A DNA stretch of 64,000 nt from NCBI RefSeq assembly GCF_056712565.1, contig NZ_CM160072.1; one strand, given 5' to 3'. How positions within the stretch are numbered: the stretch's first letter is position 1; each line of letters opens with the position of its first letter. The translations under genes and the position numbers were made by a program. The notes beneath the pieces are model-generated. The model worked only from the letters and a program-made list of their open reading frames with translations. It was not told the origin of the DNA and ran no database searches. This document shows, piece after piece, positions 12,675 to 43,627 of the stretch.

Positions 12675-14515
12675 GATCACCACCTACATAGGAGGTGTTT
12701 TAAAATTGATCGAGTAGGAGGCGGGATCACTCCCGCCGTCCTCTCACACCACCGTACATGCGGCTCCGCATACGGCGGTTCATGTTAACACTGGAACTGC
12801 CTCTGCTGTTCCAGCAGTGATATCAGACCCTGCCTGCTGAACCACGCATTCTTTATCGCCTGATTCATATGGCTTGACTCTGAGTTCCACCATGGCCCGT
12901 GGTTGTTGTACGCTGAGATCATCGCCCTGTCCTTACTCAGTCCTGCTCTTTGCAGGTTCTTTGCCCGGGTTAGCGGTCTCTTCCACTGCCGCTACAACAA
13001 GCAACGCAGTTTCCGTTTGATCCAGCCATCCAGCTCCTCCAGCACTCCTCTGACCTCCGTCAGCCTGAAGTAGCTTATCCATCCACACAGCACTGGTGTC
13101 AGAGCATTGATTGTCGCTTTCACTGATTTGCTCCGGTTTCCCGTCGTCAGACTGTGGACTTTCTCCTTCAGCCTGTTCACGCTCGTCAGGGCTATCTTCA
13201 GCTTCGCCTGTTTGTGCCATGTCACACTGTACCCGAGGAACTTCCGATCCCACGGGCGCGCCACCGCGCTCTTCTTCTCATTCACCTTCAGTTTGTTCTC
13301 CACGAACGCCCTGATGTTCTTCAGCAGATGGTCGCCCGCTTTCCGGCTGCTTACGTAGATGTTGCAGTCGTCTGCGTAGCGGCAGAAGCTGTGTCCACGA
13401 CGCTCCAGTTCTTTATCCAGTTCATCCAGCAGGATGTTCGACAGTAACGGCGACAGTGGGCCGCCCTGCAGCATGCCCGCCTGCCGTTTCTCCCTTTGCC
13501 CGTCTTTAACCATTTCCGCTTTCAGGTAGCGGCGTATCAGTCACAGCACCCGCCTGTCCTTTATCGTTCTGGCCAGACGCGTCATCAGGAGTCTGTGATC
13601 CACCCGGTCGAAGAACTTCTCCAGATCCATATCCACCACCCACCGTTTGCCACCCCGTATGTAACGCTGTGCCTGTTGCACCGCCTGCTGGATAAGCCTG
13701 TCCACCACCGTCGGGATGCCTGAGGTTCTCACGCCGCCATCCGGCTTCGGGATATCCATCCGGCGTATTGTCCGCGGCTGGTAGTTTCCGTCAATCAATG
13801 CCTGCCTGACGCTGCGCCAGTTCTTCTTCAGCCACGGTTTCAACTCCGCCACGCTGAGGTTATCCACCCCCGCCGTGCCTTTGTTTTCCACCACGCGCTG
13901 ATAAGCCAGCATCAGGTTTTCTCTCGTTATCACCGCTTCCATCGTCAGCGGCACTTCCGCTTTCGTTTGCCCACCCGCCGCCGTGCTGATTTCAGCGCCA
14001 TCATGCAGCCCTGACGGATACTGTCCGTCTCCTCTGCCGCTGGTCGCAGTGGCCTGCGCTTGTGCTTCATTAATCATCATCGGGTTCGGATGTCCTAATC
14101 ACAGTTAATCATGTTCGGCCCTTCATGCTGCCGGTTTTGCAGCACTACTACGGCGTCGGCTGACTTCTGCCGCCCCATCCCGGCGCCTCACGGCGCCGGT
14201 AGCACACTGGCAGGGCGACAGATCTCCCGGGGTAATTCACGCGACTTTCCTGCTTATGCCTGTCGGCTTTACGTCACAGCGTTCCGTGTGAGTATCGGGC
14301 TTTGGTGATTAGTGCCACCTTACCCTGCTGCGCCGCCTTAACCGCTTCCTGTTCGTCAGGCCAGCATTTTGCATCCAGCTTCCTTCAGATTTCACCTCGC
14401 GATGAACACCCTTGCCTTCCGCTAACACTTCCCCTCACCGGGTGTGTGGAGGACTTTCACCTCTTAGTCGTTCTTCTGCCACCACAGTTGAAGAACAGCG
14501 CCAGTCACGGCGCAC
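12675..14515 (-). mobile_element. Group II intron (~1.8 kb) inserted just downstream of the microcompartment operon terminator; ends approximate
   Basis: Minus-strand GTGCG at 14515..14511 8-9 nt after the terminator T-tract; RT/maturase ORF inside; domain V-like hairpin at ~12745..12775 (CCGTATGCGG / CCGCATGTACGG with 2-nt bulge) and GNRA-capped helix after it. Confidence 0.65.
12784..14080 (-). pseudogene. Group II intron reverse transcriptase/maturase, disrupted by one frameshift (~13515-13540) and one in-frame TAG (12992-12994)
   Basis: RT blocks 0-2 in ORF 13541..14080 (AGVDNLSVAEL, IPKPDGGVRTSGIPTVVDRLIQQA, DMDLEKFFDRVDH); RT4-5 in ORF 12992..13513 (QGGPLSPLLSNILLD, FCRYADDCNIY); maturase tail continues in the same frame past the TAG (QWKRPLTRAKNL...LISLLEQQRQFQC). 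Confidence 0.7.
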
Positions 14516-31753: not shown

Positions 31754-33190
31754 GTGACAATAGCAAGAGATTCTGTTAGTGGTGAAATTGTTCATGGTCA
31801 TGATCTTCGGGAAATGGATGATCTTTATATACGAACAACCACTTTTGAATGCCCGTATGACAAATGTAGGATACCCGCTACTCCATGTAGCTTCAAAGAA
31901 ATAAATTTAAATCAATCATACTTTCGATATAAAGAGACTCATAGGCCGGGATGTAATATTCATGATCCTAAGAGTAAAAATAAGTGTAACTCAAAGAATA
32001 ATAAAAAGCATAATTCACCACCGGCATTAGCTATATCTCTTCTGAAACTTGATGTGTCTGAAAGAAATTACGACTCTTCTGGCAGAAGAATTATCAAACA
32101 GACGCGAAATGATGAAAAAGATTTGGGAGGTAAAGTACACCCTGTGTCATCTTCAAGCATCAAACCGGTAGTAGACTACTACATTAATGGAGATAATCTC
32201 TATGAACCATTATCAATTCCCCCTTATGGAGTTAGAACTTATAAAGATACTTTTCAACTAATCATCTATAAAGAAGGAATTAGATATAATAAGCCAGCAA
32301 TTTATTTTGGTAAAATTCAATCTAATATACGGCTGGAGATAAATTCGAATAGATATTACCTTACTTTTTTAGCCAGAAAGAAAGGTACCAAACAAGCATA
32401 TAAACTTGAAATTGATGCTTCAGAATGGGATGAAAGTAAAAAGAGTTTTTTCTGTAGTGAGTATGAAAAACAAAGAGCAGAAGCAAATAAGTATTATAAT
32501 GGACTAAAAGACAAGCGCAAAGCAACCAAATATCTTAATATTTTCTTTTTTGGTTTTCCTGATGAGTGCGATAGTTTTTTATTTAAGACTAGTTGTTTTA
32601 AATTGATTTATATCGTTTTCTTAGATGATTTTGATGTGACTTATAATGACAAAAACTACAGCATAGAAAAAGAACAGCTAATTAGAGATGAAATTAACAA
32701 AGAACATTTGACAGATCATCAAAATAGAATAAACCTTGCTGAGGTTGCTGAGGTTGCTGAGGTTGCTGAGGTTGCTGAGGTTGCTGAGGTTGCTGAGGTT
32801 GCTGAGGTTGCTGAGGTTGCTGAGGTTGCTGAGGTTGCTGAGGTTGCTGAGGTTGCTGAGGTTGCTGAGGTTGCTGAGGTTGCTGAGGTTGCTGAGGTTG
32901 CTGAGGTTGCTGAGGTTGCTGAGGTTGCTGAGGTTGCTGAGGTTGCTGAGGTTGCTGAGGTTGCTGAGGTTGCTGAGGTTGCTGAGGTTGCTGAGGTTGC
33001 TGAGGTTGCTGAGGTTGCTGAGGTTGCTGAGGTTGCTGAGGTTGCTGAGGTTGCTGAGGTTGCTGAGGTTGCTGAGGTTGCTGAGGTTGCTGAGGTTGCT
33101 GATTTTGACAAGAGCGAATTTAACCCTTCGGATTCTGATAGGAAAATATGGACTGGGATAAGAAAGCTTATTTCATTCTTTAAAAAATAG
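31754..33190 (+). CDS. Hypothetical AT-rich protein with a Cys/His-containing N-terminal region and a C-terminal (Ala-Glu-Val)x40 tract
   Basis: GTG start preceded by AAAGGAGA; 478 aa ORF; the in-frame 9-bp repeat encodes AEV 40 times. Confidence 0.6.
   Translation: MTIARDSVSGEIVHGHDLREMDDLYIRTTTFECPYDKCRIPATPCSFKEINLNQSYFRYKETHRPGCNIHDPKSKNKCNSKNNKKHNSPPALAISLLKLDVSERNYDSSGRRIIKQTRNDEKDLGGKVHPVSSSSIKPVVDYYINGDNLYEPLSIPPYGVRTYKDTFQLIIYKEGIRYNKPAIYFGKIQSNIRLEINSNRYYLTFLARKKGTKQAYKLEIDASEWDESKKSFFCSEYEKQRAEANKYYNGLKDKRKATKYLNIFFFGFPDECDSFLFKTSCFKLIYIVFLDDFDVTYNDKNYSIEKEQLIRDEINKEHLTDHQNRINLAEVAEVAEVAEVAEVAEVAEVAEVAEVAEVAEVAEVAEVAEVAEVAEVAEVAEVAEVAEVAEVAEVAEVAEVAEVAEVAEVAEVAEVAEVAEVAEVAEVAEVAEVAEVAEVAEVAEVAEVADFDKSEFNPSDSDRKIWTGIRKLISFFKK
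32738..33097 (+). repeat. Perfect tandem repeat, 40 copies of GCTGAGGTT (360 bp)
   Basis: Read directly: unit starts at 32738 and repeats without a single mismatch to 33097, then a partial GCT. Confidence 0.95.
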
Positions 33191-33321: not shown

Positions 33322-35106
33322 ATGTGGTCAGACAAAGAGTCATCAGAAGACTACCTAAATTTTGGTGAAGTATCTCAGTTAGCCGTGGATGTACTTACCA
33401 CGAAAGATATGTTACCAGTATCTATCGGAATTTTTGGAAACTGGGGGGCAGGTAAATCCTCTCTGTTAAAACTGATAGAGCAAAAACTTGAGCAAGACGA
33501 CAAAGATTGGATTGTTATCAATTTTGACTCTTGGCTCTATCAGGGGTACGACGACACCCGTGCCGCACTTCTTGAAGTCATCGCTACAGAATTGACAAAA
33601 GCTGCTGAAGGTAATTCAGCCCTTATATCAAAAACTAAGAGACTCCTTAGTCGAGTTGATGGTTTTAGAGCTATGGGATTACTAGCTGAGGGTACAGCTT
33701 TAATGGCAGGATTACCTACTGGCGGTTTGCTTTCTAGGGGGATTGGTGCATTAAGAAATATCACCGATGGCATCCAGAGCCAGGAAGAGTATGAGGCTTT
33801 AGGCAATATAGCTAAAGAAGGTAAAGAAACTGCTTGTGGTTTGATTAAACCACAAACAAAAAAAAGCCCCCCTCAGCAGATTGATGCCTTTCGTAAGGAA
33901 TATGGGGAAATTCTAGAAGAACTTGGAAAGCCACTCATTGTGGTAATAGATAACCTAGACCGCTGTCTCCCTGCCAATGCTATCCATACACTTGAAGCTA
34001 TCAGGCTATTCCTTTTCTTGACTAATACAGCCTTTATTATTGCAGCAGATGAGGACATGATTCGCTCTTCTGTGGCTGATTACTTCAAAGGGGCATCACA
34101 GCGCCATCAAATAGATTATCTGGATAAGCTAATCCAGGTTCCTATTCGGGTGCCTAAGGCTGGGGTCCGTGAGATCCGTTCGTATCTGTTCATGCTTTAT
34201 GCCATTGAACATGGCTTAGAAGGCGAAAAAATAACTATGCTCCGTGAGGGCTTAGAGAAGGCGTTACAGCAATCCTGGAAAGATGAACCAATCTCACGTC
34301 AGGAGGCCTTAAAAATGACTGGTGAAGCGGATGATAGCAACCTCGCGCTGGCGTTTGCGCGTGCTGACCGTATTGCTCCCATTTTAGCCAACTCTCCAAT
34401 TATTCATGGTAATCCCAGGATCGTTAAACGCTTGTTGAATGTTGTGAAAATGCGATCTCAAATTGCGAAGCGACGAGCAATGCCTTTGGATGAAGCAATT
34501 ATTACTAAGCTAGTAATTTTTGAACGCTGTGTTGGAGTGGATGGCACCGCTGATTTATATCATCTCGTGGATATTGAACAAGGTGTTCCCCAGATACTTA
34601 AACAGCTTGACGATAATGGCGGTCAAATACCTACTGATGCACCAAAGACATGGACTGATAGTCCAACGACTAAATCTTTCATCAGTCAATGGGCCCAACT
34701 TGAACCTCGTCTTGGTGGGATTGACTTAAGGGCCGCCATATATCTGTCCCGAGAAACTATGCCAATAGGTGCATATGTGGTTGGTTTATCGCCATCTGGA
34801 CGGGAAGTACTAAATGCACTAATTGAATTGAAAAACACTAGTTCTCCTACAGCAGAAAACCTTTTGAAAGCACTTCCTCGTGAGGAGCAAATACCTGTAA
34901 TGGAAGGTTTAATTAACCAGTTACGGCAGGTATCAGATTGGGATCGTAAGCCCAGAGGCTTTTCCGGTGCATGTCTGTTGGCCCGCTACTCAACAGATGC
35001 AGCCAGCATATTAATTCGTTATCTACAGGAATTACAGTTGGGGATGAAACGACCAGCGTGGATGACTGCAGCATTAAAAGATGAACAATGGAATAAGGAC
35101 GCTTAA
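33322..35106 (+). CDS. qatA: KAP-family P-loop NTPase (QatA-like)
   Basis: Walker A GNWGAGKSS followed by the KAP-characteristic INFDSWLY block; 594 aa. Confidence 0.8.
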   Translation: MWSDKESSEDYLNFGEVSQLAVDVLTTKDMLPVSIGIFGNWGAGKSSLLKLIEQKLEQDDKDWIVINFDSWLYQGYDDTRAALLEVIATELTKAAEGNSALISKTKRLLSRVDGFRAMGLLAEGTALMAGLPTGGLLSRGIGALRNITDGIQSQEEYEALGNIAKEGKETACGLIKPQTKKSPPQQIDAFRKEYGEILEELGKPLIVVIDNLDRCLPANAIHTLEAIRLFLFLTNTAFIIAADEDMIRSSVADYFKGASQRHQIDYLDKLIQVPIRVPKAGVREIRSYLFMLYAIEHGLEGEKITMLREGLEKALQQSWKDEPISRQEALKMTGEADDSNLALAFARADRIAPILANSPIIHGNPRIVKRLLNVVKMRSQIAKRRAMPLDEAIITKLVIFERCVGVDGTADLYHLVDIEQGVPQILKQLDDNGGQIPTDAPKTWTDSPTTKSFISQWAQLEPRLGGIDLRAAIYLSRETMPIGAYVVGLSPSGREVLNALIELKNTSSPTAENLLKALPREEQIPVMEGLINQLRQVSDWDRKPRGFSGACLLARYSTDAASILIRYLQELQLGMKRPAWMTAALKDEQWNKDA

Positions 35107-35858
35107 TGGGAACATCACAATCAAGTAAAGGTCCAGGAGGTGGCTCTCCGCTGGTTCCACCATGGGCTGATGATCAGCCACAGCAACCGTTACCCTCGCC
35201 GCAAGAAAGGAGGTTTGCGCCATTTCGAGAATCGTTGGGAAATGCGGTATCAAATGGAAATCGAGCAGATTTCAGAAAAGCCATAGGGCACTACGCGCGA
35301 AAAGCCTCCGGAGGGAGCAGTAACGCTGCTCGGCGATTAGGGAGTGTCACGCAAGCTGGGGCCGAATTATTTGGGGCTTTAGTGGGAATGCCTTCGGCTC
35401 CCGGAGAACCAAGCATCGATTTGGGCAGTTTGGCAGGCCTTCCATGCGAAATAGCAATATCAACTATTGCTCAAGCTTTAACATCACAGGATGGTGACTC
35501 AGAAAAGATCTGTGCGGCCATGAACCATGCTTTAGTGGAGGCTCTTGATGGCGTAGAAATTTTCGATCCTCAAAAAATAACTGATGGTGTGATTGTTGAC
35601 ACAATGATTGGTTATCTAGCGGAAAGTATTTTCCTTCAGATGGTAATGGATTCTAATAGGGCATGGAACAAAGCAGATACACCTTCAAAGGCAATTCATG
35701 CAGAAATTGAACTCCGGGAATTGATTAAAGTTGTTGTTGATAAACATATGGCACCAAAACTTGCCGGTAACATAAGATCGTTCACACGAAACCAAATGGT
35801 AAAAATTGAACGTCAGGCCATTATTGAGGCCTGGCAAGAATGGGAGGCATACCAGTGA
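35106..35858 (+). CDS. qatB: Protein of unknown function (QatB-like position), Gly/Pro-rich N-terminus
   Basis: Start overlaps the qatA stop (TAATG); no motif recognised; call rests on operon position. Confidence 0.55.
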   Translation: MGTSQSSKGPGGGSPLVPPWADDQPQQPLPSPQERRFAPFRESLGNAVSNGNRADFRKAIGHYARKASGGSSNAARRLGSVTQAGAELFGALVGMPSAPGEPSIDLGSLAGLPCEIAISTIAQALTSQDGDSEKICAAMNHALVEALDGVEIFDPQKITDGVIVDTMIGYLAESIFLQMVMDSNRAWNKADTPSKAIHAEIELRELIKVVVDKHMAPKLAGNIRSFTRNQMVKIERQAIIEAWQEWEAYQ

Positions 35859-37159
35859 CACAATTAGTTTTCCATCATAAACATCACCATTTGCCGCCAG
35901 CAAGTGAGAAAGTGTTACCTGTTCAGCTATATGGATTAAGTGGTCAGAGGCGCGGAGATATATCTGTTATCGGGAATCCTGCGATTGATCGGATCAGACG
36001 TTTGGGAGTACAGCTTCCAGCTAAGGTCATGGATTTTCTGAGTGTTGCATTAGCAGTAACTGCAGCAGATACTTTCGTTCAGCGTGAAAGTTCCGAGGAT
36101 GGTTGGACCCGCCAATTGTCGTTACGACTCCCCCTTCATGAACCATCCAGATGGATTAGTCTAAAGAAAGAACTTGAGAGTGCTTTGCATTTTCTTAGTG
36201 GAGACATCTGGGATTTCGAATTTTGTGACGATGGTTATGCACCGCCAGAGCCTTATAGCCAGCATTCAAGGCATCGTCTGATTAAGCTAAAAGGGCTTGA
36301 CTGTGTCAGCTTATTTTCAGGAGGTCTGGATTCAGCTATTGGTGCAATAGATCTTCTGGCTGCAGGGCGCGCTCCACTTTTGGTTAGTCATGCTTATAAG
36401 GGGGACAAGTCTCGTCAAGATCAGATCGCTGAAAAATTAAGTGGCCAATTTTCGCGCTTTGAGATTAATGCTGACCCACACATTTATCAAGGCGTGACTG
36501 ATATTACGATGCGAACTCGTAGCCTCAATTTTCTTGCCTTTGCGGCCGTAGGTGCTTGTGCCGTACAAGAGATATCTCAACAAGAAAAGATTGATTTGTT
36601 CGTACCTGAAAATGGATTTATCTCATTAAATGCACCACTTACTCCACGGCGGATAGGTTCGCTGAGCACACGAACAACACATCCACATTTTATTACGAGC
36701 ATACAAAAGATCTTTGATGCGCTCGGTATTTCTTGTCAAATAATCAATCCATATCAGTTTAAGACAAAAGGAAAAATGATCTCCGAATGTTCAAATAAGC
36801 AGCTCTTATCTAAAATTGTGGAAAGTACAGTATCCTGCAGTCATTGGAAACGAATGGGGCAGCAATGTGGGGTATGTATACCGTGTATCATTCGACGAGC
36901 ATCACTTCATGCAGGGGGAATTAGTAGAGATGTTGAATATATTTTCCAGTCCTTAGCTAAAGTAATGAATGAAATAGATCGCAGGGACGACCTGATCGCC
37001 CTTAGGATTGCGATCACGCAGAAATCGACTTTGAAAATAGGTACATGGATTGCCAAAAGTGGCCCTTTGCCTACGGCAGAATTTGATAATTTCAAGCAAG
37101 TATTTAAGGATGGCCTAGATGAGGTTGAAAGCTATTTACTGAGTGAGAACATAGTATGA
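35840..37159 (+). CDS. qatC: QueC-like PP-loop ATPase (QatC-like)
   Basis: PP-loop SGGLDS (LFSGGLDSAIGAIDLL) in a 439 aa protein larger than housekeeping QueC; overlaps both neighbours. Confidence 0.8.
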   Translation: MGGIPVTQLVFHHKHHHLPPASEKVLPVQLYGLSGQRRGDISVIGNPAIDRIRRLGVQLPAKVMDFLSVALAVTAADTFVQRESSEDGWTRQLSLRLPLHEPSRWISLKKELESALHFLSGDIWDFEFCDDGYAPPEPYSQHSRHRLIKLKGLDCVSLFSGGLDSAIGAIDLLAAGRAPLLVSHAYKGDKSRQDQIAEKLSGQFSRFEINADPHIYQGVTDITMRTRSLNFLAFAAVGACAVQEISQQEKIDLFVPENGFISLNAPLTPRRIGSLSTRTTHPHFITSIQKIFDALGISCQIINPYQFKTKGKMISECSNKQLLSKIVESTVSCSHWKRMGQQCGVCIPCIIRRASLHAGGISRDVEYIFQSLAKVMNEIDRRDDLIALRIAITQKSTLKIGTWIAKSGPLPTAEFDNFKQVFKDGLDEVESYLLSENIV

Positions 37160-37881
37160 GCATCGATATGCACTGTCATCTAGACTTATATCCTCGGCCA
37201 GACCTCGTGGCTGAAGAAAGTAAGCGTCGAGGGACTTATATTCTGTCGGTGACAACAACACCTAAAGCATGGCATGGTACTTCTTTATTGGCTAAAGAAA
37301 GTCAACGAATCCGAACTGCTCTTGGGCTACATCCTCAAATCGCGCATCAAAGATCGCATGAGTTAGACCTGTTTGATTCATTGCTTTCGGAAACTAAGTA
37401 TGTAGGGGAAATAGGGCTTGATGGTGGACAGGGATTTAAAGAACATTGGGATATTCAATTGAAAGTGTTCCGACACATTCTCAACAGTGTAAATCGGGCT
37501 GGTGGCAAGATTATGACTATCCATAGTCGGGGAAGTGCATCAGCGGTGCTTGATGAGATTGAAAATATCGATGGGGTGGCAATATTGCATTGGTTCACTG
37601 GAACACCTAAGCAGCTTGAAAGGGCAATTGATTTAGGATGCTGGTTCTCAGTGGGGCCTGCTATGCTCGATACAATAAAGGGTAAGGCCTTAGTTTTGAA
37701 AATACCCAAATCACGCATTCTTACAGAAACAGATGGGCCATTTGCTAAGTTTCGTAATGACCCACTAATGCCATGGGATAGTGGGATTGCAGAGAAACAG
37801 TTAGCCGCATTATGGGGGATTAGTCAGATGGAGGTTAATGCTCAGCTAGTTGATAATTTTAAGGTATTATGTACATCATAA
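37156..37881 (+). CDS. qatD: TatD-family metal-dependent nuclease (QatD-like)
   Basis: N-terminal HCHLD motif and downstream His/Asp/Glu pattern of the TatD TIM-barrel hydrolase; ATGA overlap with qatC. Confidence 0.85.
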   Translation: MSIDMHCHLDLYPRPDLVAEESKRRGTYILSVTTTPKAWHGTSLLAKESQRIRTALGLHPQIAHQRSHELDLFDSLLSETKYVGEIGLDGGQGFKEHWDIQLKVFRHILNSVNRAGGKIMTIHSRGSASAVLDEIENIDGVAILHWFTGTPKQLERAIDLGCWFSVGPAMLDTIKGKALVLKIPKSRILTETDGPFAKFRNDPLMPWDSGIAEKQLAALWGISQMEVNAQLVDNFKVLCTS

Positions 37882-38433
37882 GAATGAAAAACTTAGATAT
37901 GCATTTACAGTTCAATTCATTTTTCGTCATCAGTTAATTACACATAAAATTAAAAGTAAGAATATATCTACCCTGTGAATGAGTAAGGCGGATTTATATA
38001 GTTTGTAATTAGTTTAAATGTAAGCAGTTCGTCAGAGTGCGTATTCCGCTCTATTCGATCACGGATTGGCCGTTATGACCCGATCTCGATGGAAGTTATT
38101 GGGTGATCCCCTTCCATGAAAATATGCACCGAAGCTCCCGCAGAGGTTTCCGTGGGCGAAGGCATGATTCTGTCCGAGAGCCGGATGTGTTAGAAGCGCA
38201 TGTCCGCTTCGATGAGCGGGGTGTGGAAACAGGATTTATGGTCAGGACAGTAAGGCACCGCCAATCGAAAGAGGCGGCAACAGATATGCCTGACCTGTAA
38301 AATTACCGCGCCACATCTTGACTCTACCCGTTTTCCAAGCGCCCCCCCTTATAGAACGTACACTGGATGGTGATACCGGCTATACATCGCATATTTGACA
38401 GTCAGCTTGCTGAATTTTTCATTGGCTGCAGCA

Positions 38434-39009
38434 TCAGGGCGTTTTCCAGATGACAGCTATAGTAAAAATGATCGCCAGACTGGCGAGAAAGCAGAGCGAA
38501 AGCGGGATTTTGTCCTTCAGTGTCAGGTTCAGCTCTTCTTCAACCCATGCTTTTTCAAATTCACAGTAAAATTTATAATGTGCGTACCAGTTACTTCCGA
38601 AGATCTGTTTGCTGATGACCGTGCCGTAAAACCGGGACATGATAGCGTCGATGGATTGTTGTGTACGCTGATAGTCAAAGTTTGCATCGCTTTTTACGTT
38701 GCGGTAGATGACTTCAAGTTCATTAAAAATTTTGGTCTGCTCAATCCCCGCACTTTCATAACTCTGCTTTTCCGAGTCATAAAACTGAATGTACATTGTA
38801 GCAACACCAAATATAATTAATATCGCGGAAATGACGTTTGTGGCCAGCTCAGGAATAAAAAGGGCGAACACACCGACAGCAAGAGAAATAAAGCTAATCC
38901 AACCGGATGCCTTACAAATCAGATCATAGGTGGCAAAGTTTTTCTTAGCGCCAAATCCAACGTTATAACCATGTCGGGCGATTAATTTCAGCATCTCTGA
39001 TTGCGTCAT
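38434..39009 (-). CDS. SLATT-like two-transmembrane effector protein
   Basis: 191 aa with two central hydrophobic helices (WISFISLAVGVFALFIPELATNVISAILIIFGVATMYI) and a C-terminal hydrophobic segment; 8 nt downstream of the SMODS gene. Confidence 0.6.
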   Translation of the reverse strand: MTQSEMLKLIARHGYNVGFGAKKNFATYDLICKASGWISFISLAVGVFALFIPELATNVISAILIIFGVATMYIQFYDSEKQSYESAGIEQTKIFNELEVIYRNVKSDANFDYQRTQQSIDAIMSRFYGTVISKQIFGSNWYAHYKFYCEFEKAWVEEELNLTLKDKIPLSLCFLASLAIIFTIAVIWKTP

Positions 39010-39016
39010 AAAAACC

Positions 39017-40345
39017 TCAGCTTATGGGAACTTCAATCTGGGCCCGGGCAACCACAACCTCATTTTTTATCACATAGCATTCTACCATGTGATCTCCGCG
39101 GAAGTCGGTAGTTTCTTTCTTCGTACAGTAGCCGCCGTCCGAAACGATTTGTCCCCGGATCATATTTCTTCTGCGTGCTTCGTCACCCACGTTCAGTACC
39201 TTCCACATAACGGTGTAGGGTTCCTCTGCCTCCATTTCTGTCAAGTCTGCCCGGAAAAGGAGAGATTTTCGAGCGGAGAGGCGGAATCTTCTGATAAGCA
39301 TCTCCCTCAGGCTTCTGGGAGGGAAACCATCCTGGGTTACGGTACAGTCAAGGTTGAGTGAGTACCTGATATCCACCGGATATTTATCCTCTATAAACTC
39401 TTCGGTATCGGTCCAGGGAACAGCATCTGCCGCATGCGATTCCAGACCAAGACGGGCTTCCATAATACCCACTTTACGTCTGGGGAAGGCTCGTCCGAAC
39501 ACTTTGCGCCAGCGGTCATTTTCACTGGCAGCCCCCTCAGCGTCTAAGGCATCACAACATAATTCATACGCGTGTTTCGCTGCCCGGCCAAACCAGGGAG
39601 ATTTAACACGTACATGCTGATTACTGCCTAACGCGAGATACCTTTCCTTTCTCTCCTCATTTGACAGATATTCAAAAAAGTCTCTGGCGAGGGCTCCCAG
39701 GCTGCCATTTCCGGTATTGTCATAATCTGATGTTGATGAAAGAAAGCGATACGCTAGTGTGTCTATCAGTAAGCCACCCATATTGACGCCATGCAGGTTC
39801 TTCCAGGCTCTGATCATTTTACACAGCTTGCGCAGATTATTGGATTTATCTCGCGAAAATGCGGTCATGGCCGCCTTTTCGTGAAGAGGTTTTGTAATGC
39901 GCCATGCTCCTCCATTATAGCTTTCAGGGAATTTAAAGCTGTCATCATCCTGTCTGAATACAGGTTGAACCTCGACATAAAAGTTTTTAAAGATGATCTG
40001 AACAACCAGTCTGTCCTTTTTCACAGTCTGGTCAGGATATTCTTCCGCCAGAATGTTTCTGACATCTGTAAGCAATGCAGACTGACCATTATCCTTACGG
40101 TTATAATATTCATACTGATTGGGGGGCATAATATAAAGCATATCCAGATCGGATATGCCTTTTATTGCGGTATGTCTGCCTACTGACCCCACTTTCAAGC
40201 GGTTTGCTACCCGGGAACTCGTTCCTCTGAACGCAAGATTTAATGACTTGGTTATTTTTCGATAGTGATAGCTGATCTTTTTTGCCTGTTTGAGGTCAAG
40301 ATTCAAATTTTCAAGAAATTCGCTGAACAATTCCCTGTGGCTCAT
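39017..40345 (-). CDS. SMODS-type (cGAS/DncV-like superfamily) nucleotidyltransferase with C-terminal sensor-like domain
   Basis: Pol-beta NTase motif GS-x10-DLD (GSVGRHTAIKGISDLDMLYI) in a 442 aa protein. Confidence 0.75.
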   Translation of the reverse strand: MSHRELFSEFLENLNLDLKQAKKISYHYRKITKSLNLAFRGTSSRVANRLKVGSVGRHTAIKGISDLDMLYIMPPNQYEYYNRKDNGQSALLTDVRNILAEEYPDQTVKKDRLVVQIIFKNFYVEVQPVFRQDDDSFKFPESYNGGAWRITKPLHEKAAMTAFSRDKSNNLRKLCKMIRAWKNLHGVNMGGLLIDTLAYRFLSSTSDYDNTGNGSLGALARDFFEYLSNEERKERYLALGSNQHVRVKSPWFGRAAKHAYELCCDALDAEGAASENDRWRKVFGRAFPRRKVGIMEARLGLESHAADAVPWTDTEEFIEDKYPVDIRYSLNLDCTVTQDGFPPRSLREMLIRRFRLSARKSLLFRADLTEMEAEEPYTVMWKVLNVGDEARRRNMIRGQIVSDGGYCTKKETTDFRGDHMVECYVIKNEVVVARAQIEVPIS

Positions 40346-40479
40346 GGTGTTTCCTTTGGCATGTGAAACATTAGCTTACATTATCATTACACCTTATAAA
40401 AACCAAGATCTTGGGAGGTGAGCGTTCTGCATGGCTTTATGACTTAAACGTAAGCGTTAACGGAGTGCCGTATTGACGC

Positions 40480-40665
40480 TTATTTATTGGTGAGTACTAC
40501 GTTCCATGGCAGGAGTTCGTCAACTCGGTTGGAAGGCCATTCCGGCAGTACGCTCAGGATATGGCTCAGATACGCTTCCGGATCGATATCGTTCAGTCGG
40601 CAGGTGCCGATCAGCCCGTACAACAGTGCTCCTCGCTCGCCGCCGTGATCGCTGCCGAAGAACAT
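40480..40665 (-). mobile_element. IS66-family transposase (TnpC) C-terminal relic
   Basis: YLSHILSVLPEWPSNRVDELLPWN is the conserved IS66 transposase C-terminus; only ~60 codons present. Confidence 0.6.
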
Positions 40666-40685
40666 AATGAATCGCCACGGATAAT

Positions 40686-41498
40686 CTAGACACTTCCGAG
40701 CCGTTGATAATACTGGTTTTCATATTCTGTCGGTGACATCTGTTCGCTAGAACCATGCCGACGCTTACTGTTATAAAACATTTCGATGTAATCAAAAATA
40801 TCACTGCGGGCTTCTTCCCGCATTCCGTAGATCTTTTTCTTTATCCGTTCACGTTTCAACAACTGGAAAAAACTTTCTGCAACCGCATTATCATGGCAGT
40901 TACCGCGACGGCTCATGCTACCCTCCAGGCCGTGTGATTTCAGGAACGACTGCCACTCATGGCTTGTGTACTGACTGCCCTGATCCGAATGAACCAGCAC
41001 CTGTTTTTCGGGATTACGCCGCCATACAGCCATCAGCAGTGCGTTCAGGACAATGTCCTTTGTCATCCGGGATTGCATGGACCAGCCGATAATTTTGCGT
41101 GAGAACAGATCAACAACAACGGCAAGATACAGCCAGCCTTCGTGGGTCCTGATGTAGGTTATGTCCGTTACCCAACGCTCATCAGGAGCATCCGGATTGA
41201 ACTGTCGCTGGAGCCTGTTGGGTGACATGATACTGGCCTCGCCTTTACGTGCCCGCGGGCTTCGGTATCCGACCTGAGCCTTTATTCCGACACGTTTCAT
41301 CAGTCTCCAGACTCTGTTTACTCCGCACTGTTGCCCGCTGTCACGCAGATCCAGATGGATTTTGCGATAACCATAGACGCATCCCGATTCCAGCCAGAAC
41401 TGTTTAATCTGTCCTGTCAGTCTCAGGTCTGCCTGATGGCGTTGTGAATGCGGCTGCTGAAGCCAGGCGTAAAAACCACTGGGATGAACATCCAGCAC
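40686..41498 (-). CDS. IS911 OrfB (DDE integrase/transposase catalytic subunit)
   Basis: IS3-family rve domain with DDE context (WVTDITYIRTHEGWLYLAVVVDLFSRKIIGW ... HSDQGSQYTS ... CHDNAVAESFF). Confidence 0.85.
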   Translation of the reverse strand: MLDVHPSGFYAWLQQPHSQRHQADLRLTGQIKQFWLESGCVYGYRKIHLDLRDSGQQCGVNRVWRLMKRVGIKAQVGYRSPRARKGEASIMSPNRLQRQFNPDAPDERWVTDITYIRTHEGWLYLAVVVDLFSRKIIGWSMQSRMTKDIVLNALLMAVWRRNPEKQVLVHSDQGSQYTSHEWQSFLKSHGLEGSMSRRGNCHDNAVAESFFQLLKRERIKKKIYGMREEARSDIFDYIEMFYNSKRRHGSSEQMSPTEYENQYYQRLGSV

Positions 41499-41554
41499 CC
41501 GACAGAGCAGGCGAACAGGCCAGCAACAGGTGTTGTCACGGATAAAGGCGTACC

Positions 41555-41842
41555 TCAGTCGGACAGCTTTGCGAAGTACGCCGCCTTTTTTAATATTTCA
41601 TTCTCCATTTCAATGCGTTGTAGCTTTTTCCTCAGCTTACGTATTTCGATTTGTTCTGGTGTTATCGGAGAGGCTTTTGGTGTTTTGCCCTGACGCTCAT
41701 CACGCAGTTGTTTGACCCATCTTGTCATTGTGGAAAGGCCAACATCCATAGCTTTGGCGGCATCTGCCACCGTGTATTTCTGGTCAACAACCAGTTGAGC
41801 GGATTCGCGTTTAAACTCTGCGCTAAAATTTCTTTTTTTCAT
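41555..41842 (-). CDS. IS911 OrfA (HTH transposase subunit)
   Basis: [46 protein letters not shown]. Confidence 0.85.
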
Positions 41843-41911
41843 TGGAGCACCTGTGTTGTTCTGAGGTGAGCATATCACCTCTGTTCAGGTGGCCAAATTC
41901 AGTGTGCCACT

Positions 41912-42289
41912 TCAAGCCGGGAGCGGCGTCAGCCAGTCTCCCTTTACCCGCGCTTTTTCGGAAAGCCCACCCCAATGTTTTTCTCCTACACCCCAGCCGG
42001 TCAGCAGGACCTTATCCCCGGTCTGATATTCAGGATGTGAGCTGGCGGACACTGTACCGGCAAAATCAATGCCTGGCACCATTGGAAAGTGCCGGACGAT
42101 AGGCCCGCGGCCCGTAATAGCCAGTGCGTCTTTGTAGTTGATAGATGAACAGTCGACATTGACCTCCACATCCCCCTGTGGCAGCTCGCTTTCAGCGATT
42201 TCAGCAATTTGGGCACTGTGGCGACCATACATCTTACTGATTAATAAGGATTTAAACATTTTTTTCTCGTCTTTCTGGTTTGATGTCAT
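41912..42289 (-). pseudogene. N-terminal ~115 codons of a YhdH/AcuI-like zinc-independent MDR oxidoreductase, truncated exactly at the IS911 end
   Basis: [42 protein letters not shown]...[26 protein letters not shown] matches the YhdH N-terminus; reading frame runs into the IS911 terminal repeat. Confidence 0.65.
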
Positions 42290-42862
42290 TGAGCTATAAA
42301 GTAGTCAATAAACAATATTGACCGATCGTCTAATAATCAACGCTGATATCCCAGTGTTTGTCAGAAAACAAGAATTGCTTTTCTTTTCATCAGGTTAAAT
42401 CTATCTTTTTTGATTTATATCAAACCAGATTCGGTCTTCAATTATATAGGCATCAATGTTAGCGGTCCTACAAGATACGCAGTCGATGCTTCAGGGCGTA
42501 CTGATGAAATAAAACAAGTAGGCTGAGATTAGTTGGTCTGCTCATCGCTCACAGCGGACCTTCAGCTTCGTTAGCCAAGCGCTGACATAGTTACCGATGT
42601 AGCGTGTTAATCTGTCGGGAGCATAGCCGAAATCACTTAACCCATTAGACTTCACCTAAAACTGCAAAAATTACCGTCTTTGTCACACTCACCGAGTTTA
42701 ATCAAACTAACACTGTACATAGTGCGAACAAGAGCCAACCAGAAAGACTGTTCAGCATCAACAGTGAAGTTTTTCCCCGCTACTTCCCCGCAATTCTTCC
42801 GCAGTTTTCCCACTAGAGAGTTCGACACATCCCTTGCATACCAACGCTTTGATTCAAATCTC

Positions 42863-43627
42863 GGTAGTGCATCCAATTAGTAGAATATGTGTTTTTCGAT
42901 AAATGCTCCGATCACTTTTTCGTGGATCTCAACTGAGCGTGAGAAGCAGATTGTTTACGAGCCAACCGCTTAATGTGGGTGCGTAGCGTCAGATTATTAC
43001 GCTCAATGCGTTGGGTGAATATTTTGCCGGTCAGATGCTTATTCTTCGGCACCACCCGGCCATAGCTGTCCCAGTCATCGCTGGTGAGCATGCCGATGTT
43101 GAAGGGTGTAAGCAGTGCCAGTAGCTCCCGGCACGTTTGATCGGTTCGGGGACCAAAAGTGTAGGCCAGTACACCGCCTGTTTTGGTGTTGTACGCGTAC
43201 CAGAGCCAGTGTAGCCGGGCTTTACTGCCAACGTAGCTCCATTGCTCATCAAGCTCGCAGATAAGCGCCACATCAGCATGGGCAACAGGCGAAGAAGTTA
43301 TTTGCGTTGGTGCGAGTTTTTTAAAGTCCGGATGATGGTGTTAATACCAATTTTCAGTGTCCTGGCGGTATCGCGAACCCCGGCACCATTAAAGGCCATT
43401 TCAGTGATCATCTCTTTCATACCCGGCTTACGTGCTTGATAAGTATAAGTGAGCTGAAACACACGGTGGCAGTCACGGCAGCGAAATCTGTCACGGCCTT
43501 TAGGGTTCTGACCATGGCGGTAAACCTGAGCTGACTGACAACGGGGACAATGAATATTAACGCTGGCCATGAGATAACCTCAAAAGCCCGTATTATACAT
43601 CAGATTCAACCAATTAGAGGCATCACC
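42863..43627 (-). mobile_element. Diverged IS1-family element (InsA 43298..43570, InsB 42912..43271)
   Basis: InsA-like zinc-finger protein (CPRCQS...CRDCHRVF) and InsB-like ORF; IS1-like terminal repeats GGTGATGCC.../...GGTAGTGCATCC. Confidence 0.8.

Follow-up and report, generated by a model that had tools for sequence, protein, structure and literature searches.

Organization of the locus

The window, a stretch of 64,000 nucleotides from contig NZ_CM160072.1 (NCBI RefSeq assembly GCF_056712565.1), contains two minus-strand ORFs exactly where the original prediction had placed them, as verified against the ORF list. They encode proteins of 442 aa and 191 aa and, because both gave Pfam and PADLOC domain matches, those from PADLOC being full length, they are not chance ORFs. 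The gap between them had been given as 8 nt and was found to be 7 nt. On inspection of the sequence, the Shine-Dalgarno GAGG of the downstream gene overlaps the stop codon of the upstream gene, and the same 7-nt spacing was present in the homologues from an IncFII plasmid and Vibrio vulnificus. Homology indicates that the two genes are translationally coupled. The features of the locus are listed in Table 1.

Table 1. Coordinates of the cyclase-SLATT_6 locus and its features in the window.
Feature	Coordinates	Strand	Description	Basis
Cyclase gene	39017..40345	(-)	CD-NTase (CBASS oligonucleotide cyclase), 442 aa, WP_000019624.1	ORF list, Pfam, PADLOC, fold
Nucleotidyltransferase core	39482..40345	(-)	aa 1-288	Alignment and motif position
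Catalytic G53-S54, D66, D68	40142-40189	(-)		Invariant in alignment; motif position
Catalytic E125	39971-39973	(-)		Invariant; aligned with PaCdnD
Linker	39413..39481	(-)	aa 289-311, core to AGS-C; hypervariable, predicted disordered	AF2 pLDDT and alignment
AGS-C domain	39020..39412	(-)	aa 312-442	Pfam PF18134 and DSSP strands
Intergenic gap	39010..39016	(-)	7 nt; GAGG ribosome-binding site overlaps cyclase stop codon	Sequence
SLATT_6 membrane effector gene	38434..39009	(-)	191 aa, WP_000194395.1	Pfam SLATT_6, NCBIfam NF033630, PADLOC 2TM effector, AF2
SLATT_6 hydrophobic helix	38848-38904	(-)	aa 36-54	Hydropathy
SLATT_6 hydrophobic helix	38782-38838	(-)	aa 58-76	Hydropathy
SLATT_6 hydrophobic helix	38446-38508	(-)	aa 168-188	Hydropathy
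Conserved upstream core TGTAATGATAATGTAAG	40375..40391	(-)	Candidate -10 region (GATAAT)	Copy comparison
Span common to both near-identical plasmid copies	38345..40389	.		Local BLAST, window vs plasmid loci

The cyclase

The 442 aa protein matched Pfam SMODS (1.3e-39), which places it among nucleotidyltransferases of the cGAS/DncV-like type as had been predicted, and the PADLOC Cyclase model PDLC00796 covered residues 1-442 (1.8e-176). Two NCBIfam "CBASS oligonucleotide cyclase" equivalogs scored below their cut-off (100 and 41 bits vs 200), and the RefSeq name of WP_000019624.1 is only "nucleotide-binding domain-containing protein". The AlphaFold2 (AF2) model had a pLDDT of 79.9, with values below 50 confined to residues 54-57 and 292-311. 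All of the best 50 PDB fold matches of this model were CD-NTases, the top match being P. aeruginosa CdnD (PaCdnD; E 5e-15, TM 0.78-0.81 on the target), and the fold is thus of the cyclase type. A sequence search of the PDB gave no match of the cyclase to solved clade B or G enzymes.

The catalytic motif had been described as GS-x10-DLD. Both of its parts are present (G53 S54 ... D66 L67 D68), but the spacing between them is x11 rather than x10. Residues G53, S54, D66, D68 and E125 were invariant in a 30-sequence alignment (51-88% identity), and E125 lined up with the Asp that is the third catalytic residue in PaCdnD (VEVQPVF vs VDAVPAF). By homology, the active site of the cyclase is complete, with the GS loop, D66, D68 and E125. 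The bilobed fold and the active-site positions are those of PaCdnD (6P8U/6P82, type III) and of the solved CdnC, E. cloacae CdnD, CdnB, CdnE, DncV and CdnG, although the identity between solved CD-NTases and the window cyclase is only 20-22%. An invariant Glu provides the third catalytic carboxylate here, against an Asp in PaCdnD, the HORMA/Trip13 partners of the type III CBASS of PaCdnD are lacking, and the window cyclase carries an AGS-C domain that is absent from every solved CD-NTase.

That domain accounts for the "large C-terminal domain" of the original prediction: residues 313-442 matched Pfam AGS_C (PF18134, 2.1e-44), and DSSP on the AF2 model showed it to be beta-rich, with ~8 strands. 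Sequence and profile searches with the isolated AGS-C domain returned nothing significant in the PDB. AGS-C was conserved to the same degree as the catalytic core, and its invariant C334, H419, E422 and C423 are candidate metal- or ligand-binding residues. The mean top-residue frequency of the linker was 0.32, versus 0.73 in the core and 0.68 in AGS-C, and its length in homologues ranged between 14 and 25 residues. By homology, the 442 aa protein is a cGAS/DncV-like nucleotidyltransferase joined via a disordered linker to AGS-C.

The membrane effector

The 191 aa protein matched Pfam SLATT_6 (PF18169) at 5.6e-63 (residues 1-173 of the 176-position model), exceeded the curated cut-off of NCBIfam NF033630 (223 bits vs 100), as expected of the predicted SLATT protein, and matched the PADLOC 2TM Effector model at full length (2.7e-82). 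Hydropathy windows of at least 1.6 spanned residues 30-77 and were resolved into helices at ~36-54 and ~58-76. The predicted pair of adjacent transmembrane helices was therefore recovered, but the protein does not have only two hydrophobic segments, as a third at 168-188 was kept in 32 of 32 homologues. The AF2 model was all-helical (pLDDT 90), with helices predicted at the hydrophobic segments. No significant match came from PDB searches by sequence or profile, or from a Foldseek comparison of the model with solved structures (E <= 0.001). No recognisable ligand-binding domain was seen in SLATT_6. By homology, the 191 aa protein is a SLATT_6 inner-membrane effector.

Distribution, selection and the upstream region

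The cassette was present in 257 of 5426 complete E. coli genomes, being 100% identical in ST95-type strains (e.g. S88, APEC O1, ATCC 11775), and was also carried, at 96-98% identity and apart from Qat, by 62 plasmids, most of them conjugative. In local BLAST comparisons, IncF plasmid pEC507_1 matched window positions 38228-40389 at 98.4% and IncX1 plasmid pMAS2027 matched 38345-40449 at 96.6%. At least two lineages of the cyclase occur in E. coli (100% and 83% identity). The order of cyclase then SLATT_6, with a gap of 2-7 nt, was found in an E. coli IncFII plasmid copy (83% identity), V. vulnificus, Methylomonas and a 6.8-Mb genome, while a cyclase homologue in a Chitinophagaceae MAG was paired with SLATT_4 instead. 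All of the homologous cyclase-SLATT pairs listed here lay in defence neighbourhoods. Homology points to the two genes travelling jointly as a ~2.1 kb cassette. Neither gene was interrupted by internal stops, dN/dS came to 0.06-0.35 in the cyclase and 0.08 in SLATT, and both genes are judged from these sequences to be under purifying selection.

The region 5' of the cyclase bears on whether the cassette could be an inactive relic among insertion sequences, which we consider very improbable. The native promoter may have been lost, given that IS3, IS1 and a truncated transposase sit just 5' of the genes; the transposase fragment (40480-40665) and IS3 (~40686-41878) directly precede the cyclase, and a consensus scan of the minus strand called no sigma-70 promoter ahead of it. 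Natural IS knock-outs of the SLATT gene also exist, by IS1414 in strain GYB01 and by IS5 in a Morganella plasmid. However, both ORFs are full length relative to their HMMs, 100% identical in many genomes and under purifying selection, and ~45-105 nt 5' of the start codon move as part of the cassette, the core of this segment being kept even in a 78%-identical copy. This core, TGTAATGATAATGTAAG, was the only upstream stretch conserved across the chromosomal, IncX1, IncF and 78%-identical IncFII copies, and it occurs once in the window. TGTAATGATAATGTAAG is put forward as a candidate -10 region of the cassette promoter. It was not called as a promoter by the consensus scan, and the promoter and terminator counts of that scan were not above those of shuffled controls.

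The neighbouring Qat operon

The convergent neighbour was confirmed by PADLOC as QatABCD at 33322-37881(+) (QatA E = 0, QatB 9e-131, QatC 2e-140, QatD 6e-97), and the predicted tail-to-tail distance of ~550 bp agreed with the 552 nt that separate the stops of QatD (37881) and SLATT (38434). The spacer (37882-38433) gave no Rfam match even at E <= 1 and did not resemble any other part of the window, the group II intron included; repeat searches within it returned short pairs only, probably by chance.

Type IV CBASS uses QueC-like and TGT-like accessory proteins, and the two operons could on this model form one functional unit in which QatC modifies or primes the cyclase. They lie tail to tail, 552 nt apart, the Qat/CBASS junction was found in 243 of ~257 cassette-bearing complete E. 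coli genomes, and QatC weakly matched the PADLOC CBASS QueC model (3.9e-4). This match is set against 1.8e-140 for the Qat model, and the operons are convergent and so are not co-transcribed. The 96-98% identical IncX1 and IncF plasmid copies adjoin HEPN genes, IS elements and replication genes rather than Qat, the cassettes of Vibrio, Methylomonas and others adjoin HipA, TIR, type I R-M or BrxR and likewise not Qat, and TGT or OGG genes were absent from the RefSeq annotation over +/-12 kb. A joint unit is on these grounds highly unlikely, and the Qat operon is a separate defence system within the same island.

Type and class of the system

No PADLOC CBASS matches were obtained in the flanking ORFs. 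Cap2/3, HORMA/Trip13 and type IV accessory genes were absent from these ORFs and the RefSeq annotation, which over +/-12 kb lists only Qat, IS elements and metabolic genes, and the system is therefore assigned to type I CBASS. The SLATT_6 gene lies 7 nt downstream of the cyclase gene on the same strand, which places the effector within the cyclase operon, a criterion for CBASS.

Type IV CBASS, represented by the Cap10-CdnD complex (9NTN), resembles the locus in having a QueC-like gene nearby, although the CdnD of 9NTN was a weak match (E 0.15). It was rejected because qatC, the QueC-like neighbour here, is part of a complete QatABCD operon convergent with the cassette; the cassette also occurs elsewhere without qatC. 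In Pycsar, the pyrimidine cyclase (PycC), of the class III adenylate/guanylate-cyclase type, is sometimes fused to AGS-C (bioRxiv 10.1101/2023.05.21.541620). Pycsar was rejected since the catalytic domain here is SMODS by Pfam and not a class III cyclase, AGS-C alone being in common.

The Pol-beta GS...DxD motif is common to the CD-NTase, MNT and antibiotic nucleotidyltransferase families. A reading of the large protein as an MNT-type toxin-antitoxin component or antibiotic nucleotidyltransferase, with the membrane protein unrelated or its toxin partner, draws on this motif, present in the cyclase yet not family-specific, and on a marginal match to Pfam NTP_transf_2 (PF01909, E 0.032), but it is effectively refuted by the far stronger SMODS (1.3e-39) and PADLOC cyclase (1.8e-176) scores and by the fold, which is bilobed where these families have a small single lobe and whose 50 top PDB matches are all CD-NTases, and is further opposed by the fusion of AGS-C to the core and by the conserved partner, which is a SLATT effector and not a HEPN toxin.

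With a SMODS/CD-NTase cyclase and a SLATT_6 effector in one operon, the original prediction of a minimal CBASS-like signalling module was borne out. It is held to be right because the large protein does have a cyclase-type fold and the small protein does have strong hydrophobic helices, the two points on which it could have failed, and nothing in the sequence contradicts a type I CBASS reading. The locus is very probably an intact, ordinary type I CBASS operon in which two genes make up an abortive-infection module. The cassette is already known: its architecture has been catalogued, and the PADLOC models fit it end to end.

Relation to characterized systems

AGS-C fusions are limited to CD-NTase clades B, F, G and H (Richmond-Buccola et al., bioRxiv 10.1101/2023.05.21.541620, later published in Cell Host Microbe, 2024), so the fusion found here narrows the choice to these four. 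Solved clade B and G enzymes gave no sequence match, and the published E. coli operons that combine AGS-C with SLATT6 are F04/F05. From the species, the AGS-C fusion and the SLATT_6 partner, the cyclase is a putative member of clade F (CdnF04/F05). EcCdnF04-SLATT6 (strain BIDMC103) and EcCdnF05-SLATT6, likened to the locus by architecture, share with it the species, the two-gene order, the CD-NTase-AGS-C protein and SLATT_6; the window allele may be one of these two or a sister of them. These operons restrict many dsDNA phages, EcCdnF04-SLATT6 by at least 10,000-fold for phages from five families; in F04/05 operons AGS-C is fused to the cyclase, and two genes are enough for a type I operon to give defence (bioRxiv 10.1101/2023.05.21.541620). 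For clade F enzymes, no in vitro product was known as of 2023 (same source). The original prediction had offered no nucleotide product or trigger for the clade, and none is given in the literature searched: papers on clade F CD-NTases and on SLATT in CBASS reported no product or effector mechanism.

A lactococcal plasmid NTase/AGS-C and SLATT type I CBASS has been verified (PMC11381338). Both this system and the Chitinophagaceae homologue have a CD-NTase-AGS-C gene followed by a small SLATT gene, as here, but their effector is SLATT_4 (PF18186) whereas that of the window is SLATT_6, and the hosts are distant.

Proposed mechanism and significance

The steps proposed here were drawn from established CBASS biology and the published CdnF04/F05-SLATT6 tests. 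The cyclase would be switched on late in phage infection, with the AGS-C domain probably tuning what is sensed, and would make a cyclic oligonucleotide. This signal is predicted to bind the cytoplasmic part of SLATT_6, consisting of the N-terminal helix, in which Y15, G18-F-G-A-K-K23 and D29 are invariant, and the helix with S139 and W141-F147, in which S139 and W141-Y-A-H-Y-K-F147 are invariant; K22/K23 and W141/Y142/H144/K146 would form the ligand site, and the three helices would give the protein an N-in/C-out topology. SLATT_6 would then oligomerise or open in the inner membrane, resulting in cell death before phage release.

Prohead-protease phage mutants are at least 10-fold more resistant to AGS-C-bearing F04/05 operons (bioRxiv 10.1101/2023.05.21.541620). 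In the clade A, D and G CD-NTases that are activated by proteases, a surface-exposed disordered loop of ~30 residues occupies the middle of the bilobed core; clade F and AGS-C enzymes fell outside that study (Hobbs and Kranzusch 2026, PMC12991175). These enzymes belong to the same family as the window cyclase, but their central loop is missing from its model, and an internal protease-activation loop was rejected because the low-pLDDT residues 292-311 follow the core and precede AGS-C. The linker is the sole long disordered, hypervariable segment of the cyclase and a candidate protease tripwire, in which a cut by a phage prohead protease would free an autoinhibitory AGS-C, a proposal that we regard as unlikely. 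If true, the cut would turn on a clade-F-type cyclase by a tripwire architecture unlike the loop inside the core of clade A, D and G enzymes, and the 2026 protease-sensing model would reach ~40% of type I CBASS cyclases, those with AGS-C.

As a locus, the cassette is ordinary, being common among both extraintestinal pathogenic E. coli and conjugative plasmids of the IncX1 and IncF groups, and its value is as a handy native example of a CBASS clade with an AGS-C cyclase and SLATT_6. Its presence on resistance-type conjugative plasmids gives it relevance to phage therapy against Enterobacteriaceae.

Gene layout and neighbouring features

Both minus-strand ORFs of the original prediction were recovered, and the pair lay tail-to-tail with the Qat operon as had been described, with 552 nt separating the Qat and small-gene stop codons (predicted, ~550 bp). 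PADLOC matched all four Qat genes (QatA, E = 0; QatB, 9e-131; QatC, 2e-140; QatD, 6e-97). The gap between the cyclase and SLATT genes was 7 nt rather than the 8 nt first reported, and a GAGG ribosome-binding site overlaps the cyclase stop codon.

Positions of the features discussed, in window coordinates
Feature	Position	Strand	Evidence or remark
Cyclase ORF, 442 aa	39017..40345	-	six-frame ORF list
Small-gene (SLATT_6) ORF, 191 aa	38434..39009	-	six-frame ORF list
QatABCD operon, complete	33322-37881	+	near-full-length PADLOC matches
Qat/CBASS spacer stretch, 33-38 nt	about 38033-38071		
TGTAATGATAATGTAAG, upstream of cyclase	40375-40391		candidate -10 region
Mobile-element debris, directly upstream of cyclase	40480-43570		truncated transposase fragment; IS3-family element with programmed frameshift; truncated alcohol dehydrogenase gene; frameshifted IS1
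478-aa ORF directly upstream of qatA	31754-33190	+	hypothetical in RefSeq
9-nt repeat array in 478-aa ORF	32736-33102		40.8 perfect copies, encodes (AEV)n
Group II intron RNA domains	12709-14406	-	Rfam

The pile-up of mobile-element debris upstream of the cyclase places the islet in a heavily rearranged region. The short spacer stretch was also present, 97-100% identical, in many other E. coli chromosomes and plasmids, with as many as 33 copies in one genome; it had no Rfam match and no similar sequence elsewhere within the window, and is probably part of a mobile or repetitive element. The orthologue of the 478-aa ORF in E. coli S88 has 532 aa, which suggests that the (AEV)n copy number differs between strains. 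The only two hints to the family of this ORF were a weak PADLOC PD-Lambda-4_B match (5e-6) and a sub-threshold match to NCBIfam ChePep (7.5e-08; 31.6 bits against a cut-off of 650). Elsewhere in the window, the Rfam domains D1-D4-3 (139.7 bits), D1-D4-1 (73.8 bits) and Intron_gpII (48.5 bits) together indicate a group II intron.

The cyclase

Pfam SMODS covered residues 1-161 of the 442-aa protein (1.3e-39), and the PADLOC "oligonucleotide cyclase" model PDLC00796 spanned it end to end (1.8e-176). The large C-terminal domain that had been noted is AGS-C (Pfam AGS_C, residues 313-442, 2.1e-44). The GS...DLD motif was found as predicted, with a spacer of 11 residues (GS-x11-DLD) instead of 10. 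In an alignment of 30 homologues with 51-88% identity, G53, S54, D66, L67, D68 and E125 were invariant. The third catalytic carboxylate is assigned to a conserved Glu, E125, since its strand VEVQPVF aligns with VDAVPAF in P. aeruginosa CdnD (PaCdnD).

The AlphaFold2 model built on the same alignment (mean pLDDT 79.9) has a bilobed core of helices and beta-sheet; residues 292-311 are modelled with low confidence, and about eight beta-strands make up the C-terminal domain. When it was compared with the PDB using Foldseek, the top 50 matches were all CD-NTases; PaCdnD was the best (6P8U/6P82, E 5e-15, target-normalised TM 0.78-0.81), followed by CdnC, E. cloacae CdnD, CdnB, CdnE, DncV and CdnG. 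The SMODS-like reading was thus borne out by both profile search and structure prediction. The alternative raised originally, an antibiotic or minimal nucleotidyltransferase lacking a cyclase-type fold, was ruled out by these matches and by the generic NTP_transf_2 family, which reached only E 0.032. Judged by homology, the protein is a catalytically complete CD-NTase. It belongs to a large family, with more than 4100 scored homologues and, in the 90%-identity cluster containing the window's cyclase, 781 member sequences.

The SLATT_6 effector

The SLATT-type assignment of the 191-aa protein was confirmed by Pfam SLATT_6 (5.6e-63), by NCBIfam NF033630 (223 bits against a cut-off of 100) and by the PADLOC 2TM effector model (2.7e-82). 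Kyte-Doolittle hydropathy in 19-residue windows exceeded the threshold of 1.6 over residues 30-77, resolving into helices at about 36-54 and 58-76. These are the two adjacent transmembrane helices expected; a third hydrophobic stretch at residues 166-191 (above 1.6, peak 2.5) brings the total to three. This C-terminal segment was kept in all 32 aligned homologues, with varying sequence. The invariant residues sit in predicted cytoplasmic parts, namely the N-terminal helix (I10, A11, Y15, G18-F-G-A-K-K23, F25-A-T27 and D29) and a later helix (S139 and W141-Y-A-H-Y-K-F147). The AlphaFold2 model was all-helical (pLDDT 90), and nothing similar was found among solved structures by fold or sequence profile. 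Homology thus identifies the product as a SLATT_6 membrane protein, from a translationally coupled gene.

CBASS type and relationship to Qat

No CBASS accessory gene was matched by PADLOC among the flanking ORFs, and in S88, whose corresponding region is identical, RefSeq annotates nothing but Qat genes, IS3 and IS1 elements, metabolic genes and a truncated transposase; on this gene content the cassette is classed as type I CBASS. Type IV, suggested by the nearby QueC-like gene, was rejected: that gene matched Qat at 1.8e-140 and the CBASS QueC model at only 3.9e-4, and it is transcribed convergently to the cassette. The Qat/CBASS junction was shared by 243 of the 257 genomes carrying the cassette, and the adjacency is fixed in a single E. 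coli lineage. As the cassette also travels without Qat, the adjacency is defence-island co-location.

Distribution, conservation and decay of the cassette

The cassette was found at 96-98% identity on 62 plasmids, mostly conjugative (IncX1, IncF), from Klebsiella, Salmonella, E. coli, Shigella and others. By local BLAST, similarity to the plasmid copies was confined to the stretch between about 38228/38345 and about 40389/40449. On the IncX1 plasmid pMAS2027 the cassette has two HEPN genes on one side and IS1A on the other, and on the IncF plasmid pEC507_1 it has IS elements on both sides; the neighbours of an 83%-identical E. coli copy are a ParE toxin and the IncFII replication genes. Cyclase-SLATT_6 pairs with gaps of 2-7 nt also occurred in V. 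vulnificus, Methylomonas and a 6.8-Mb genome, where their neighbours were genes for HipA, TIR, type I R-M plus Abi_2, or BrxR. In the copy from a Chitinophagaceae MAG, SLATT_4 takes the place of SLATT_6.

Both ORFs were full length against their models, and the 2.2-kb region was 100% identical in S88, APEC O1, ATCC 11775 and many more strains. Cyclase dN/dS was 0.17 against the IncX1 copy, 0.35 against IncF and 0.06 against IncFII, SLATT dN/dS was 0.08, and no internal stops were found in these comparisons. About 45-105 nt 5' of the start codon co-move with the cassette. Within this region, TGTAATGATAATGTAAG, kept even in a 78%-identical copy, is a candidate -10 region; a consensus promoter scan called no promoter there.

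In E. coli GYB01, IS1414 lies within the cassette match and the SLATT gene is annotated as two pieces around it, which looks like natural loss of a toxic effector. IS5 lies inside the copy on Morganella plasmid NC_016036.1, and both insertions are natural knock-outs. Truncated proteins also form database clusters, comprising an AGS-C-only cyclase fragment (P0033; E. coli, 258 aa, 94% identity, 35 members) and partial SLATT proteins from Salmonella and Klebsiella (P0172 and P0178-P0180), which suggests that the cassette decays recurrently in some lineages.

AGS-C, activation and published parallels

The linker between the cyclase core and AGS-C was the sole long disordered segment in the model and the sole hypervariable part of the cyclase (top-residue frequency 0.32, versus 0.73 in the core and 0.68 in AGS-C), with 14 to 25 residues across homologues. 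A profile of AGS-C had no match among solved structures. AGS-C is nearly as conserved as the catalytic core, with invariant residues including C334, H419, E422 and C423, which favours a conserved role in regulation or ligand binding over a variable surface for antibody-like recognition. Cyclases of clades A, D and G are activated when phage prohead proteases cleave a disordered loop within the enzyme (2026 preprint, PMC12991175), whereas the AlphaFold2 model of the window's cyclase lacks such a loop. Cleavage of the linker is conceivable as the trigger, given its disorder and hypervariability.

We infer that the cyclase belongs to clade F: the AGS-C fusion leaves B, F, G or H as possible clades, no sequence-level match to solved clade B or G enzymes was found, and the published E. 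coli AGS-C and SLATT6 operons are F04 and F05. Among described systems, the locus is closest in architecture and species to the CdnF04/F05-SLATT6 type I CBASS operons of E. coli. In the published screen of type I CBASS, two genes were enough for an operon to give defence, phages of five families were restricted at least 10,000-fold by EcCdnF04-SLATT6, protection against Drexlerviridae was broader with AGS-C-bearing operons, and prohead-protease scaffold mutants of Bas04 and Bas05 were at least 10-fold more resistant to the AGS-C-sharing F04/05 and G09 operons (bioRxiv 10.1101/2023.05.21.541620). Literature searches on clade F CD-NTases and on SLATT in CBASS turned up no newer paper giving a product or an effector mechanism.

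The locus is an already known kind of system, present here as a common allele. Infection would switch the cyclase on, the cyclic oligonucleotide produced would gate or oligomerise SLATT_6 in the inner membrane, and cell death would precede phage release. The published type I screen supports this proposed outline for the cyclase-AGS-C plus SLATT6 architecture.
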